A stretch of 64,000 bases of DNA from Escherichia coli. GTDB lineage: Bacteria; Pseudomonadota; Gammaproteobacteria; Enterobacterales; Enterobacteriaceae. This document shows positions 22,033 through 27,816 of the stretch, in pieces. Under the pieces are notes generated by a model that had not been told where the DNA came from, did no database searches, and worked only from the letters and a program-made list of their open reading frames with translations. The stretch lies in NCBI RefSeq assembly GCF_051903065.1, contig NZ_CP178438.1. One strand, 5' to 3'. The position numbers and the translations under genes were made by a program. How positions within the stretch are numbered: position 1 is the first letter of the stretch; each line of letters starts with the position of its first letter.

Positions 22033-22998
22033 ATGAGAACCGTTAAGGTATTTGAGGAAGCCTGGCCCTTACATACCCCGTTTGTGATTGCCCGGGGAAG
22101 TCGCAGTGAAGCGCGCGTGGTGGTGGTTGAACTGGAAGAAGAGGGTATTAAAGGCACCGGCGAATGCACGCCGTATCCGCGTTATGGAGAAAGTGATGCC
22201 TCGGTAATGGCGCAAATTATGAGCGTCGTACCGCAATTAGAGAAAGGGCTGACACGGGAGGAGTTGCAAAAAATTCTCCCTGCCGGCGCAGCACGTAATG
22301 CGCTGGATTGTGCATTGTGGGATCTGGCGGCGCGAAAACAGCAGCAATCGCTGGCTGATTTGATCGGCATAACGCTTCCCGAGACAGTCACCACTGCACA
22401 GACGGTAGTCATCGGTACGCCTGATCAGATGGCCAATAGCGCATCAACACTCTGGCAGGCCGGCGCGAAATTATTGAAAGTGAAGCTGGATAACCATCTT
22501 ATCAGTGAGCGGATGGTGGCAATTCGCACAGCTGTGCCCGATGCCACGCTGATCGTTGATGCAAATGAATCATGGCGTGCAGAAGGGTTGGCGGCACGTT
22601 GCCAGCTATTGGCGGATTTAGGCGTTGCTATGCTTGAACAACCGCTTCCTGCGCAGGACGATGCGGCACTGGAGAATTTTATTCATCCGTTACCGATTTG
22701 TGCTGATGAAAGTTGTCATACTCGTAGCAATCTGAAGGCGCTGAAAGGGCGCTATGAGATGGTTAACATTAAGCTCGATAAAACCGGGGGTCTGACGGAA
22801 GCGCTGGCGCTGGCGACTGAAGCACGTGCACAAGGTTTTCGTCTGATGCTGGGCTGCATGTTGTGTACCTCTCGTGCCATTAGCGCCGCTTTACCGCTGG
22901 TGCCGCAGGTCAGTTTCGCCGATCTTGACGGACCGACCTGGCTGGCGGTAGATGTGGAACCGGCGCTTCAGTTCACGACGGGCGAATTGCATCTTTAG
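22033..22998 (+). CDS. ycjG: L-Ala-D/L-Glu epimerase (enolase superfamily, 321 aa)
   Basis: Met at 22033 (MRTVKVFEEAW…); enolase-superfamily fold. Confidence 0.85.
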   Translation: MRTVKVFEEAWPLHTPFVIARGSRSEARVVVVELEEEGIKGTGECTPYPRYGESDASVMAQIMSVVPQLEKGLTREELQKILPAGAARNALDCALWDLAARKQQQSLADLIGITLPETVTTAQTVVIGTPDQMANSASTLWQAGAKLLKVKLDNHLISERMVAIRTAVPDATLIVDANESWRAEGLAARCQLLADLGVAMLEQPLPAQDDAALENFIHPLPICADESCHTRSNLKALKGRYEMVNIKLDKTGGLTEALALATEARAQGFRLMLGCMLCTSRAISAALPLVPQVSFADLDGPTWLAVDVEPALQFTTGELHL

Positions 22999-23701
22999 GA
23001 TGCCAGCGCAGCAAGTTTGCCATCGCAAAGAGATATTTTTCGCTGGCTTCGTCGGAGGAGATGGGCGGAAACTCTGCGGTGATGCAATGCAAGTTCAGAT
23101 CTGCACACCAACTGCCGAAAGAGCCAGGCGTTTCATAACCGACGCTGGTTACCAGAGGCAATTCAAACGCCTGAGCCAGCCATTCGCCTAATTCGCTGTG
23201 TCTGGGATCTTCAATACAGGCCAGTGGATCGTGGAATGAGACCACCCAGGCAGGTTGAATGCGGTGTATAAGCTGGCACAGCGCCTGGGTTTCAGGTTCG
23301 GAGCCAGGTTTGTCACCAGTCAGTAATACGACATCACGTTCTTCAGCGGCGCTGTTCCAGCGATAAACCGTTTCACCTTCCTTCCAGTTTGCCGCCGGAA
23401 AGTTTCTGTTTAAATCCACACCATTAGCATTGGCCCGTAACCCCAGCTGGCAGCCGTCAGGATTCACACACAGCACCACATGATGGCGGCGCAAAGAAGG
23501 TGTCAAAGTCCGCAGAGCACAGGAGAGCGTGACGACCGAAGAGTTTTCATCACCGTGAGTGCCAGCCAGAATCAAACCACTTTCGCGACTGGCTGCAGGG
23601 GCCGGAAACCAGATTAACGGCGCGCCCAATAATGAACGTCCGTAATGTTCTGTTCCGGGCGGAAATGCGCCGCGTTCGGCGCGTGGGCGGGTTACGGTCA
23701 T
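22973..23701 (-). CDS. mpaA: Murein peptide amidase A (gamma-D-Glu-Dap amidase, 242 aa)
   Basis: Protein from internal Met (MTVTRPRAERGAFPPGTEHYGRSLLGAPLIWFPAPAAS…); M14-type motif GTHGDE. Confidence 0.85.
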   Translation of the reverse strand: MTVTRPRAERGAFPPGTEHYGRSLLGAPLIWFPAPAASRESGLILAGTHGDENSSVVTLSCALRTLTPSLRRHHVVLCVNPDGCQLGLRANANGVDLNRNFPAANWKEGETVYRWNSAAEERDVVLLTGDKPGSEPETQALCQLIHRIQPAWVVSFHDPLACIEDPRHSELGEWLAQAFELPLVTSVGYETPGSFGSWCADLNLHCITAEFPPISSDEASEKYLFAMANLLRWHPKDAIRPS

Positions 23702-23793
23702 GATCGTCTCTGGTTCAGGAAGTATTACAGGCAGTGTTGTGCAAATTTTGCGGATTATCAAATCCTTTTCTTCAACGCTATGTCATCGATCTT

Positions 23794-23827
23794 GTATCAC
23801 TTTTTTGCCGGAAGTTGTTTGTATTTT
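23794..23827 (+). promoter_or_regulatory. Conserved 34-bp motif (copy A) upstream of mpaA
   Basis: tgtatcacttttttgccggaagttgtttgtattt; 30 of 34 identical to copy B at 27783-27816. Confidence 0.5.
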
Positions 23828-23991
23828 TATTGATGTGCAGATATTAGAATTGTCGTAATGTTATATACATGGCGTATTTTATTCTTACTGGTTCTACACA
23901 TGTTAATCGCATCTGATTGATCAGTTCACCTTAATAAGTTTAATAAATCGTACTGCACATAGTACAGTACGATGGTGGCTATATAATTGAT

Positions 23992-24642
23992 TTACATGAA
24001 GAATGGCTTATCGCCATCAGTCCCGGGTTGATTGATGCCTATATTCTCACCAATGTGTTTCTCAGGTTTATCGATGATATCTGTAATTAATGCTGCGACA
24101 CTCTTACGTGATACGATCGTACCTTTGAATGGTTCATTGCGTGAGGTAAGCTCATAATCAATAATATCTTCATCCGTCAGCCAGGCAGGGCGAAGAATTG
24201 TATAATCCAGTCCAGAAGCCTCAATTGCATCCGCAGCCCTGCGGAATGGTTTTAGGGGCTCACCAATAACTGCATTATTCCATTCGCCAAATTTTCCTGG
24301 AACTTCATCATAAATGCCGAGGGAAAGAACAAAGATCAGACGTTTAACATCACAGGCTTTCATCGCAGCGATCACTGAATTTGCCTGAATATCTAAATCT
24401 TCCCCCGTAAGGTTGGCATACACAATATCCTGTCCCTGCATGGCCTGCTTCAGTGCTGCATGATTCAGTACATCCCCCATAATAATCTGGCTATTAGTTG
24501 GATAGGGTTTGTGTATTTTTGCTGGCTGACGAGCAAATAAAGTTTGTTTAATGGTTTGTTTATCTGCCAGTTGATTAATCACATGGCGGGCTATCTGACC
24601 GCCAGCACCAAGAATGAGTACTTTTTTCATAATATTTCTCAT
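23992..24642 (-). CDS. NAD(P)-binding oxidoreductase (NmrA/atypical SDR-like, about 212-216 aa); appears intact here
   Basis: Rossmann motif VLILGAGGQIARHV near the N-terminus; open frame to stop. Confidence 0.7.
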   Translation of the reverse strand: MRNIMKKVLILGAGGQIARHVINQLADKQTIKQTLFARQPAKIHKPYPTNSQIIMGDVLNHAALKQAMQGQDIVYANLTGEDLDIQANSVIAAMKACDVKRLIFVLSLGIYDEVPGKFGEWNNAVIGEPLKPFRRAADAIEASGLDYTILRPAWLTDEDIIDYELTSRNEPFKGTIVSRKSVAALITDIIDKPEKHIGENIGINQPGTDGDKPFFM

Positions 24643-24647
24643 GAAAC

Positions 24648-25580
24648 TTATCCCAGATGGGTGTTGAAAAAAGGAATAACTTTTTCCAGCGCCTCCTGAA
24701 CTGCTTCCGGTTTGTCATACAGTTCATAATGTGAGAAATCGGGTAATGAAACTAACTGACGATCCTGCGAAACCATCGCCCGGCCATAGACTTCCAGTCC
24801 ATCACGATAAGCACCGAAGGCACCGACTTTTTCACCAACTACTACCATCACCGGCTGAGTCAGTAACACTTCAGTAAATGCGAAGGCATCCCAGGCCAGC
24901 GTTTTCTGTGCATGTGAGAACAACATTTTTGTCGCACCTCCCGGTTGTTGCCCGCGTGGTGTTTTATAGTAGTCAGTTGCTTCATAAACATCGCGTTCGG
25001 TCAGTCCATGGGCTTTTGCTGCATCCAGGCTGGCGGGAAGTAATTCGTTGATCTGTAATTCTCCACCACGAGCCTCTTTGGTTCGTTGCGACGCCATTGC
25101 ATTCAATGCGCCAATCGGATCGTAATTGCTGAAACCTTCCCGAAAAAGACGCCCGATATTAACACCCGTAATACTCACTACAGCTTTAATTCGTTTTTCT
25201 GTCAGCGCGGCATTAATGGCATAGCCCCTCCCCCCACACACACCCAGCACGCCAATGCGTTCAGCATCAACATATGGCAGAGTTACTGCATAATCGATAA
25301 CACGGCTAATATCCTCTACGCGCTGTGTCGGATCTTCTATCCAACGAGGCTCCCCACCAGATTCTCCCTGGAAATTGGCGTCATAAGCGAGAACGACATA
25401 GCCTTTTTCAGCCAATGCCTTGCCATAGATATTGCCAGACGTCTGCTCCTTACAACTGCCAAAAGGATGGACGCTGATAATCGCCGGATACTGTTTTGAC
25501 TCATCAAAATTTGGTGGAAACTGAATATTGGCAGCAATATGCCAGGCCATATCACTATTGCGGATTTGAATATGTTTCAT
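24648..25580 (-). CDS. Alpha/beta hydrolase, paralog of YcjY (310 aa)
   Basis: About half its residues are identical to the adjacent YcjY ORF by eye (shared YDAxxQGESGGEPR and IGxxGxCxGxGY blocks). Confidence 0.7.
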   Translation of the reverse strand: MKHIQIRNSDMAWHIAANIQFPPNFDESKQYPAIISVHPFGSCKEQTSGNIYGKALAEKGYVVLAYDANFQGESGGEPRWIEDPTQRVEDISRVIDYAVTLPYVDAERIGVLGVCGGRGYAINAALTEKRIKAVVSITGVNIGRLFREGFSNYDPIGALNAMASQRTKEARGGELQINELLPASLDAAKAHGLTERDVYEATDYYKTPRGQQPGGATKMLFSHAQKTLAWDAFAFTEVLLTQPVMVVVGEKVGAFGAYRDGLEVYGRAMVSQDRQLVSLPDFSHYELYDKPEAVQEALEKVIPFFNTHLG

Positions 25581-26512
25581 TACAGAGTTTCCTCAAAGAA
25601 CGGAGCTAATACTGAAATTGCTTCAGCCACATAGGCTTTGCCGTCATAAAGATCCATATGGTTTGCGCCTTCAACAATGTGATAGCGTTTATCCTGGCTT
25701 GATGCCCGATCGTACAGGTCGTCACTCATCCATTTGCTCCCTGCCTGGCTGCCCGCCACAATCTGCATCGGCTGAGTCAGGTACACTTCCGCCATATGGT
25801 AAGCATCATAGGTAATAATCTGGTTAAGGCTGCGCAAAGTAGCGTAACCCGGTGCTGTTGGATACTGCGCACGAGGGGTGTGGTAATACTCCCAGGCCTG
25901 ACGCAGTTCTTCGTTCGGCGCATCGGCCTCCTTCATTGGAGCCAGTGGCATAATGGCGTATTCTTCGCTGCTAATATCGCTGGTTCGGGCGTTTGAGCCA
26001 GCTTCAATGTGTGGCAGAGCATCAATAGATTTCACATTGTTTTCCCAACCATTGCGGAACATCGAACCAATATTGACCGCACTAACGGTACCGATGGCCT
26101 TGATGCGGCGATCCTGAATTGCAGCATTGGCTGTATATCCTGCACCGGCACAAATTCCCATCGCACCAATTCGGGTATTGTCGACATAAGAAAGCGTTGT
26201 CAGGTAATCAATCACGGCACTGATGTCTTCAGTACGAATGTATGGGTTTTCTAACTGACGCGGCTCGCCGCCACTTTCACCCTGATAAGATGCGTCATAA
26301 GCAATAGTGACAAATCCCTTTTCCGCCAGTTTTTCGGCATAGGTCCCGGCCGTTTGTTCTTTAACGCCCCCACCTGGGTGAGATACCACAATTGCCGGAT
26401 ATTGACGGGTTTCATCAAATTTTGGAGGAAAATAGATCACTGCAGACAAAGAGATGGTTGGATTATTGCTGTTAGTGAAGCTGACTTTATTATTCATCAT
26501 TCCGTTCCTCAT
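25580..26512 (-). CDS. ycjY: Alpha/beta hydrolase YcjY (about 306-310 aa)
   Basis: …MNNKVSFTNSNNPTISLSAVIYFPPKFDETRQY…; the stop of this gene overlaps the start of the downstream hydrolase (ATGA at 25580). Confidence 0.8.
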   Translation of the reverse strand: MRNGMMNNKVSFTNSNNPTISLSAVIYFPPKFDETRQYPAIVVSHPGGGVKEQTAGTYAEKLAEKGFVTIAYDASYQGESGGEPRQLENPYIRTEDISAVIDYLTTLSYVDNTRIGAMGICAGAGYTANAAIQDRRIKAIGTVSAVNIGSMFRNGWENNVKSIDALPHIEAGSNARTSDISSEEYAIMPLAPMKEADAPNEELRQAWEYYHTPRAQYPTAPGYATLRSLNQIITYDAYHMAEVYLTQPMQIVAGSQAGSKWMSDDLYDRASSQDKRYHIVEGANHMDLYDGKAYVAEAISVLAPFFEETL

Positions 26513-26599
26513 GGAGTTGTTGGTTCGTTTTAACGGTTGGTGATATCACTATAGATATTGATCATTAAGTTGATTAGACCCAAAATCATGATTAGACCT

Positions 26600-26613
26600 A
26601 TCATTTAAATGAT
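26600..26613. promoter_or_regulatory. Candidate LysR-type operator (T-N11-A palindrome) in the ycjY-pgrR divergent region
   Basis: Perfect palindrome ATCATTTAAATGAT 25 bp upstream of the pgrR start; preceded by two direct copies of tgattagacc (26571-26580, 26589-26598). Confidence 0.45.
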
Positions 26614-26637
26614 TAATAGATTGTATGGAGATACTGA

Positions 26638-27537
26638 ATGAAGCGTGAAGAGATCGCTGATCTGATGGCGTTTGTCGTCGTTGCAGAGGAGCGTAGCTTC
26701 ACTCGAGCAGCAGCCCGCCTGAGCATGGCGCAGTCAGCTTTAAGCCAGATAGTGCGCCGTATAGAAGAACGATTGGGATTGCGGCTTCTGACGCGAACTA
26801 CGCGCAGCGTTGTACCAACTGAAGCGGGCGAGCATCTTTTGTCTGTTCTTGGCCCTATGTTGCATGACATAGATTCTGCCCTGACATCCCTGAGCGATCT
26901 GCAGAACCGCCCATCCGGGACAATACGTATTACTACTGTAGAACATGCAGCAAAAACGATATTGTTACCAGCCATGCGCACATTCCTGAGATCGCATCCT
27001 GAAATTGATATTCAGCTCACCATTGATTATGGTTTGACCGATGTCGTTTCTGAACGTTTTGATGCAGGCGTCCGTCTGGGTGGGGAGATGGATAAAGATA
27101 TGATCGCCATTCGAATCGGGCCAGATATACCAATGGCTATTGTTGGCTCACCGGATTATTTTTCTCGCCGAAGTGTTCCAACGTCAGTGTCACAATTAAT
27201 AGATCATCAGGCAATTAATTTGTATCTTCCCACATCGGGTACAGCAAATCGCTGGAGATTAATACGCGGTGGACGTGAAGTTCGTGTTCGCATGGAAGGT
27301 CAGCTTTTACTGAATACGATAGACCTGATCATTGATGCTGCAATTGATGGGCATGGATTGGCGTATCTACCTTATGATCAGGTTGAGCGGGCTATTAAAG
27401 AAAAAAAACTGATACGTGTTTTGGATAAATTCACACCAGATTTACCCGGTTATCACCTGTACTATCCACACCGTCGACATGCTGGCTCGGCATTCTCATT
27501 ATTTATAGATAGGCTGAAGTATAAAGGTGCTGTTTAG
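26638..27537 (+). CDS. pgrR: LysR-family regulator PgrR/YcjZ (299 aa)
   Basis: N-terminal LysR HTH (ADLMAFVVVAEERSFTRAAARLSMAQSALSQIVRRIEERLG); divergent from ycjY. Confidence 0.85.
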   Translation: MKREEIADLMAFVVVAEERSFTRAAARLSMAQSALSQIVRRIEERLGLRLLTRTTRSVVPTEAGEHLLSVLGPMLHDIDSALTSLSDLQNRPSGTIRITTVEHAAKTILLPAMRTFLRSHPEIDIQLTIDYGLTDVVSERFDAGVRLGGEMDKDMIAIRIGPDIPMAIVGSPDYFSRRSVPTSVSQLIDHQAINLYLPTSGTANRWRLIRGGREVRVRMEGQLLLNTIDLIIDAAIDGHGLAYLPYDQVERAIKEKKLIRVLDKFTPDLPGYHLYYPHRRHAGSAFSLFIDRLKYKGAV

Positions 27538-27782
27538 CACTACTTGCTGATACATTAATTTAATTCTTCTCTTAACGTATTCTCAGTTCCTTTCAACGTT
27601 TTGGTTATTTTTTATTCTTCGTACAATGGCGACAGATGCTGATTATGATACCGAAAACTGGTTTGAACGTGTGAAGCCCGAACGTAGTGTTCGGTGTTCT
27701 ATGTGCTTTGCCGCATTTTGGCGTCTATTATTTACACTAAATATGATTTAATATATTGATACATAAAACATTTTATGCTTCC

Positions 27783-27816
27783 TGTGTCACTTTTTTGATG
27801 GAAGTTGTTTGCATTT
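27783..27816 (+). promoter_or_regulatory. Conserved 34-bp motif (copy B) upstream of mppA
   Basis: tgtgtcacttttttgatggaagttgtttgcattt, ending 58 bp before the mppA ATG. Confidence 0.5.

Follow-up and report, generated by a model that had tools for sequence, protein, structure and literature searches.

A probable horizontally acquired four-gene cassette between mpaA and mppA of Escherichia coli and its erosion in K-12

We analyzed a 64,000-nucleotide stretch of an Escherichia coli genome (NCBI RefSeq assembly GCF_051903065.1, contig NZ_CP178438.1; hereafter the window), in which three minus-strand genes lie in a row between mpaA and the LysR-family regulator gene pgrR: ycjY (also called H1 here), a second alpha/beta hydrolase gene (H2), and a gene for an atypical short-chain dehydrogenase/reductase (SDR). 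We consider it probable that this locus is the undegraded form of a horizontally acquired four-gene cassette, in which pgrR is divergent from ycjY, H2, and the SDR gene, whose product is of the NAD(P)H-dependent atypical type. In most strains of E. coli, K-12 among them, this cassette is in decay.

The insertion site and the cassette in other bacteria

In Citrobacter, Enterobacter mori, and Klebsiella oxytoca, mppA and mpaA are divergent neighbors about 185 bp apart with no cassette between them, and ycjG, tpx, and tyrR follow as they do in E. coli; the Citrobacter MpaA is 93% identical. The mppA-mpaA spacer of Citrobacter can be aligned on either side of the E. coli cassette, with ∼30 nt of it matching both sides. 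That stretch lies inside a 37-nt direct repeat, the left copy of which (23790-23826) and the right copy of which (27780-27816, ∼58 nt upstream of mppA) are identical at 32 of 37 positions and have a spacing of 3,990 bp. Citrobacter has the repeat only once, and each of the E. coli copies can be aligned with it; no such repeat was found beside the cassette in other taxa. These alignments indicate that the repeat is a duplicated target from the ancestral mppA-mpaA intergenic region. The GC content of the insert is 0.46, compared with 0.52 to 0.56 on the mpaA/ycjG side, and no integrase or transposase gene is present in the E. coli insert. With an empty site in relatives, flanking repeats, and plasmid carriage elsewhere (see below), the locus has the features of a genomic islet. 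We also considered a sigma-54 promoter within the 37-nt repeat (GG-N9-GC), which was dismissed on our own reading of the sequence, the spacing being one base short of the consensus.

The same unit, comprising a divergent LysR gene, H1, H2, and a NAD_binding_10 gene, was found in gene neighborhoods of Serratia marcescens, Klebsiella variicola, and Afipia carboxidovorans. Identities to the E. coli proteins are 74 to 88% for LysR, 79 to 92% for H1, 81 to 86% for H2, and 68 to 85% for the SDR, the lower value in each case being that of Afipia, and the GC content of the cassette tracks that of each host (46, 58, and 62%). H2 stands out for its conservation, being 86% identical in Serratia and Klebsiella and ∼80% identical in Rhizobiales, Rhodobacterales, Sphingomonadales, and a myxobacterial metagenome-assembled genome. 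A conjugative IncF plasmid of Klebsiella pneumoniae has the identical four-gene arrangement beside IS110, and H2 homologs were present on 61 plasmids. Some E. coli plasmids carry an H2 homolog at 52% identity, and two ∼4.9-Mb records in the plasmid collection carry one at 62% identity; E. coli thus has what look to be further members of the H2 hydrolase family outside the ycjY locus.

Scanning one representative genome per species yielded 80 loci, 56 of which have an H2 ortholog at an identity of at least 58%. H1 lies within 400 nt of H2 at 48 of the 56 (arranged H1-H2 at 41 loci and H2-H1 at 7), and the remaining loci mostly have H1 within 1.5 kb or a contig end. A PgrR-like LysR gene is found within 2.5 kb at 25 of these loci, and the SDR is present at 8. 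As read from representative sequences, other lineages have AraC-like or MmyB-like regulators instead of LysR, and some loci add flavodoxin-like, old yellow enzyme (OYE), or classical SDR genes. The left end of the E. coli insert (23827-23991, minus strand) is noncoding and contains a palindrome with a T-rich tail; the whole of this stretch is absent from K-12. Within it, positions 23920-23977 are homologous to the spacer that precedes a 277-residue adh_short gene downstream of the SDR gene in Klebsiella and Serratia, and by this homology the E. coli insert resembles what truncation would leave of a longer LysR-H1-H2-SDR-adh_short-OYE cluster, which persists in Klebsiella and Serratia.

The regulator gene travels with the enzymes. 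pgrR (ycjZ; plus strand, 26638-27537, from the open reading frame [ORF] list and the RefSeq annotation) and ycjY are divergent and 125 to 137 nt apart, the layout of a LysR-regulated divergent operon. Its counterparts are 84 to 88% identical in the Serratia and Klebsiella cassettes and 74% identical in that of Afipia. In the divergent pgrR/ycjY promoter region lies a LysR-type operator of the T-N11-A type, ATTAATCA-N5-ATGATAGG (26597-26617, minus strand), a motif that is unique in the window. The form ATTnATCA....A.TGATA.G is kept between the LysR and H1 genes in E. coli, Serratia, Klebsiella, and ∼20 alphaproteobacterial loci, and the dyad ATCA-N7-TGAT is conserved across gamma- and alphaproteobacterial loci. 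Conservation of this dyad in the LysR-H1 intergenic region indicates that PgrR is the cassette's own regulator. Negative autoregulation of pgrR has been published (PMC10505187).

The initial annotation of the window placed the cluster next to PgrR and beside mpaA and mppA, which is correct as to position, and implied a link to murein-peptide catabolism, which the comparative data do not support. Under such a link, the cluster would take part in genuine murein-peptide recycling, with the hydrolases and the reductase processing murein-derived peptides or muropeptides under PgrR together with MpaA, YcjG, and MppA. We regard this as very unlikely. The flanking 37-nt duplication marks an insertion, the same cassette is plasmid borne in Klebsiella, and the murein genes of Citrobacter, Enterobacter, and Klebsiella are adjacent without it. 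Homologs of mpaA, mppA, and ycjG were found at 0 of the 56 H2-ortholog loci, so that no conserved association with these genes was seen outside E. coli, and most E. coli have lost H2 and the SDR while keeping mpaA and mppA. What speaks for recycling is the position of the cluster between mpaA and mppA, the published K-12 transcription unit ycjY-ymjDC-mpaA under PgrR control (PMC5934670), the description of PgrR as a peptidoglycan-recycling regulator attributed by citing papers to Shimada 2013, the filamentation of K-12 upon YcjY overexpression (PMC3614548), and the presence of peptidase families S15 and S9 among the Pfam matches of the hydrolases. Given the filamentation and the label attached to PgrR, some connection of the cassette to the cell wall is possible.

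Active sites of the hydrolases and the reductase

The minus-strand order ycjY, paralogous hydrolase, oxidoreductase, and mpaA (22973-23701) had been read correctly in the initial annotation. H2 (24648-25580) encodes 310 residues and is 43% identical to YcjY, consistent with paralogy. The longest ORF of ycjY (25580-26512) also encodes 310 residues; the start used in K-12, at 26500, gives 306. The two hydrolase genes had been described as overlapping by 4 bp, but the stop and start share only 1 nt (25580, in TAATG).

Both hydrolases give weak matches to several alpha/beta Pfam families (S15, DLH, PETase-like, and Hydrolase_4). The alpha/beta-hydrolase fold is indicated by these families, by the nucleophile elbow, by the structures 5XB6 (E = 1e-200 with YcjY) and 2HDW in the Protein Data Bank (PDB), and by an invariant C-terminal histidine. 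At the elbow, GVC115GG of H2 and GIC117AG of YcjY align with the GxSxG of solved serine hydrolases, so that a cysteine takes the place of the catalytic serine, and this cysteine is invariant in both paralogs. The histidine (H284 in H2 and H281 in YcjY) is invariant in 135 sequences from both families. The same 135 sequences also share a large number of invariant Arg, Lys, and Tyr residues, because of which the substrate is probably anionic. The substrates of the hydrolases and the reductase had been described as not established, and we found none in the literature searched; the same literature yielded nothing on 5XB6 and nothing useful for PA2218.

NADPH-dependent SDRs that inactivate 3-oxo-acyl-homoserine lactones (3-oxo-AHLs) are known, and a second alternative is that the cassette is a quorum-quenching module, in which H1 and H2 would be AHL lactonases and the SDR would reduce 3-oxo-acyl chains. 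Both hydrolases do find their best NCBIfam match, covering the whole profile, in the AHL lactonase family UilS (NF047920), at 74.8 bits for H2 and 88.5 bits for YcjY (E = 9e-21 and 6e-25). UilS is an experimentally supported lactonase that is annotated as a dienelactone hydrolase (PMC11633161). Scores of roughly 75 and 88 bits, however, fall far under the curated family cutoff of 400, the many invariant Arg and Lys residues are harder to reconcile with a neutral AHL than with an anionic substrate, and nothing AHL related recurs among the 80 loci. We therefore judge quorum quenching improbable as the role of the cassette.

The SDR gene (23992-24642, minus strand) encodes 216 residues in its longest form, a predicted NAD(P)H-binding protein of the NAD_binding_10, BLVRB/NmrA-like type. 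The match to PF13460 is full length (model positions 1-184 of 184; E = 1.1e-54), a glycine-rich motif, GAGGQIA, occupies residues 8-14 of the 212-residue form, and there is no YxxxK motif, as in an atypical SDR. The protein is ∼99% identical to PDB 3QVO. A gap of 5 bp between the SDR and H2 genes (24642-24648), proposed in the initial annotation, holds for the longest SDR ORF (start 24642, MRNIM...), but the start chosen by the Prokaryotic Genome Annotation Pipeline (PGAP), 24630, leaves a 17-nt gap. The upstream in-frame start is kept in Serratia and on the Klebsiella plasmid, and either start is possible. A 12-bp indel at the SDR start (24622-24633, ATGAGAAATATT) lies between ATGA repeats and shifts the likely start codon; it separates H2-keeping genomes (MRNIMKK...) from H2-deleted genomes (MKNV...).

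Stepwise loss within E. coli

Comparison with the K-12 mpaA-ycjY interval by pairwise alignment bore out the initial statement that K-12 keeps only fragments, ymjD and ymjC, at this position; the intact genes are not in K-12, which lacks three stretches. The first is 665 bp (window 23827-24491), comprising the 3' three quarters of the SDR gene and the DNA downstream of it; the second is the 12-bp indel described above; and the third is 867 bp (window 24659-25525), missing in frame. What remains of H2 is the 21-codon ymjD, made up of its first 18 to 19 and last 3 codons, while ymjC corresponds to the first ∼45 codons of the SDR gene, which in the window is the intact form of this K-12 pseudogene. 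The window and K-12 YcjY proteins are 97% identical. The possibility that K-12 ycjY is a recombinant of both paralogs was ruled out, as it matches the distal gene at this identity throughout and the H2 remnant is separate.

The soil strain SC434 carries the 12-bp and 867-bp deletions only, with a junction identical to that of K-12, and hence these two deletions preceded the 665-bp deletion. The states are common in the species. Among 5,426 complete E. coli genomes, with a gene counted as present when at least 80% of it was found, H2 is present in 1,271 (23%) and the SDR gene in 2,898 (53%); by subtraction, ∼1,630 genomes (30%) have the SDR gene with H2 deleted, and ∼2,340 (43%) are in the K-12-like state. 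H2 was lost through the 867-bp in-frame deletion in about three quarters of genomes, and the K-12 type has the additional 665-bp deletion, which takes the SDR 3' end and the palindrome downstream. Rarer forms include strain EC28, with a deletion across the 5' ends of ycjY and pgrR, and one E. coli assembly in which a near-complete H2 is fused in frame to the SDR, from roughly SDR residue 25 onward, in a protein of 489 residues; here the H2-SDR junction has undergone a further, independent deletion. The left edge of the 665-bp deletion, 23827, is the first base past the left repeat, which is the exact cassette boundary; chance, microhomology (ATTT/ATTA), or a mechanism specific to the boundary could each account for this match.

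The remaining hydrolase has also diverged in K-12. K-12 YcjY, the protein that was crystallized, has P35Q, V39L, and M147I at columns at least 97% invariant in 66 orthologs, and all three changes are absent from the YcjY proteins of the window and of SC434. These deviations may reflect relaxed constraint after the loss of H2.

All of the ORFs in the window are open, as the initial annotation held in calling them intact, but for H2 this is true at the ORF level only. Compared with all other E. coli alleles examined, the H2 of this strain has two private G-to-A changes, S69N and G118R, a putative form of the disabling lesions that had been named as counting against intactness. Both positions are at least 97% invariant in 59 H2 orthologs; G118, the third residue past the nucleophile Cys, is invariant in all 59, and S69 is invariant across the 135 sequences of both paralog families. 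The 5-kb region is 100% identical to that of E. coli 23CRST027, which is the one complete genome among the matches listed to contain the exact R118 60-mer at full length, the number of such genomes being at most 11. The glycine codons just after the nucleophile Cys form a G-run (window 25227-25238, H2 codons 116-119). In the O157:H7/O145:H28 group, 1 nt has been added within this run at codons 116-119, exactly so in ∼212 complete genomes, and PGAP labels the gene "frameshifted"; the route there was a synonymous T-to-G change that made a G8 run, the gain of one G, and the frameshift. Alleles of 60, 61, and 62 nt coexist at the G-run, which suggests either slippage-prone on/off variation or plain decay.

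It is quite possible, although we lean away from it, that H2 in this strain is a nonfunctional relic, an ORF-intact pseudogene in the making, and that the cluster here is no more functional than the K-12 remnant. Both private nonsynonymous changes fall on residues invariant in 59 (G118) or 135 (S69) homologs, the allele was seen in essentially a single genome, and a sister lineage is frameshifted at the same codons. Set against this, the effect of S69N and G118R is deduced from sequence conservation, PA2218 tolerates a Trp at the second residue past the nucleophile, and the neutral chance that two of two private changes hit invariant columns is ∼0.09 by our calculation (91 of 310 columns). The other proteins of the strain are also clean at near-invariant columns: none of 115 deviates in YcjY, none of 66 deviates in the SDR, and 1 of 79 deviates in PgrR, namely, R89Q, which is found E. 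coli-wide, K-12 too.

The 665-bp deletion bears on the expression of mpaA as well. The palindrome within it, ATCGTACTG-N9-CAGTACGAT (23947-23973), lies 19 nt past the SDR stop and is predicted to fold as RNA into a stem of 12 bp with UUUAUU after it (−19.9 kcal/mol; z = −4.0). Its form is nnCGTACTG-N8-9-CAGTACGnn, with covarying outer pairs; in Pseudocitrobacter and K. variicola it is kept behind the SDR gene, and K. variicola, like Serratia, also has it ahead of the 277-residue adh_short gene. It may be a terminator or else the orphaned operator or promoter of a downstream gene that was lost. Since it falls within the K-12 deletion, the ycjY-ymjDC-mpaA unit under PgrR may, though this is unproven, be confined to K-12-type strains or be at its strongest in them. 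The control of mpaA by PgrR in K-12 would then most simply be read-through, enabled or strengthened by the 665-bp deletion.

Proposed function and comparison with known systems

The empty sites in relatives and the flanking repeats show that an E. coli ancestor gained the cassette as a 3,990-bp insertion in the short divergent mppA/mpaA intergenic region, duplicating 37 nt of the target. The location beside murein-peptide genes would be an accident of that insertion. PgrR would bind the conserved operator and control the H1-H2(-SDR) operon in response to a small molecule, the LysR sensor derepressing or activating the hydrolase pair. H1 and H2 would be Cys-His alpha/beta hydrolases with dienelactone-hydrolase-like chemistry and with UilS-type lactonases as distant relatives, and they would act together, as a complex or in successive steps, on a substrate of the ester, lactone, or thioester type. 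The SDR, and elsewhere OYE, flavodoxin-like, and classical SDR enzymes, would reduce the hydrolase product. The whole would be a small catabolic or detoxification module.

Several points weigh against this proposal in addition to the filamentation and the regulator label described above. A target duplication of 37 nt is long for transposition. The SDR, in only 8 of 56 loci, may not share one pathway with the hydrolase pair. The hydrolase chemistry is inferred from the fold and one residue, and no catalytic acid, the third member of a Cys-His-Asp triad, could be identified from the sequence. Structure prediction for H2, a check proposed in the initial annotation, gave a low-confidence AlphaFold2 model from a 10-sequence alignment (mean predicted local distance difference test score [pLDDT] of 61.7, with the lid below 50), and a Foldseek search of the PDB with this model returned 5XB6 and 2HDW and then generic esterases, lipases, thioesterases, and PETases, which lent no functional specificity. 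A scan for promoter and terminator consensus sequences found sites no more often than expected and gave no terminator call at the palindrome, and the palindrome could be an operator, since it stands before another gene in Klebsiella, which leaves the read-through argument unproven.

A stronger version of the acquired-cassette reading can be put forward as speculation. YcjY and H2 might be subunits or obligately coupled steps of an unrecognized mobile Cys-hydrolase system with its own LysR sensor, conserved at ∼80% from enterobacteria to alphaproteobacteria. Work on YcjY and PgrR would then have been misled by K-12, in which the partner is deleted and the control of mpaA would be a by-product of the insertion and the 665-bp deletion. 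We think this doubtful as a whole.

The genes themselves are not new, as RefSeq annotates H2 and the SDR in thousands of genomes; in 23CRST027 the two hydrolase genes are labeled "alpha/beta hydrolase" and the reductase gene "SDR family oxidoreductase." Crystal structures already exist for YcjY and the SDR, two of the three proteins (5XB6 and 3QVO). What the present analysis adds is the picture of a cassette and its insertion and a caution about K-12, which is the wrong background for YcjY: the near-universal partner H2 and the reductase are deleted there, and YcjY itself is off at three conserved positions. The label of PgrR as a regulator of peptidoglycan recycling and that of YcjY as acting in "putative peptidoglycan degradation" in recent papers derive from adjacency, whereas the comparative data point to an insertion. 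Within a single species, the locus shows an acquired cassette disappearing step by step, through three major states and several minor ones. Pan-genome association studies commonly pick up presence/absence signals from it, one example being "ymjC" (PMC9602453).

Other features of the region concern the ends of the insert. The right end (27538-27779) is noncoding and AT rich (GC content of 0.36 to 0.41), and mppA follows pgrR on the plus strand beyond it. No DNA or translated homology was found between this flank, including a queH-like fragment, and the cassette flanks in other taxa. The fragment (∼27635-27709) is a 75-nt internal piece of QueH (epoxyqueuosine reductase), annotated by PGAP in the identical genome NZ_AP045789.1, and reads in frame ...ENWFERVKPERSVRCSMCF... 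At the other end, E. coli MFDS1019527 has a prophage (tyrosine integrase, NinB, and replicative helicase) between mpaA and the cassette, at about window position 23950, and so the left noncoding end of the cassette also serves as an integration site. An Rfam scan of 21 to 31 kb gave zero matches, as did PADLOC anti-phage models among the four cassette proteins.

The published K-12 unit ycjY-ymjD-ymjC-mpaA is the same locus under the same regulator, without the 665, 12, and 867 bp. In the window, by comparison, both H2 and the SDR gene have their full length, and a 165-nt piece of cassette DNA that includes the palindrome stands between the SDR gene and the mpaA promoter region. The SDR belongs to the same PF13460 family as the BLVRB/ChuY/NmrA-like atypical SDRs (3QVO, 4HNG, 5GUY, and 1HDO), although its similarity to the characterized members, biliverdin/flavin reductase and the anaerobilin reductase ChuY, is only 20 to 30%. 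With dienelactone hydrolase (carboxymethylenebutenolidase, PF01738), the hydrolases share the alpha/beta fold and a Cys rather than Ser nucleophile. The Pfam DLH match (i-E = 1.9e-6 for H2 and 5.9e-9 for YcjY), however, covers model positions 10-129 of 217 only, the N-terminal half; H2 and YcjY are ∼70 residues longer, with a large lid (141-239), and have no chlorocatechol-pathway context. Relative to UilS, the urea-induced AHL lactonase of S. marcescens, they are distant relatives and not members of the family. The nearest likeness is to the YcjY/PA2218 family (COG1073), whose structures 5XB6 (YcjY) and 2HDW (PA2218) are the closest solved ones, neither with an assigned function. H2 matches 5XB6 with E = 4e-68 at ∼43% identity and 2HDW with E = 1.5e-39, and it shares with this family an equal length, the GxCxG elbow, and the SH..LYD motif; it differs in forming a separate ortholog group that is nearly always found beside an H1-type gene.

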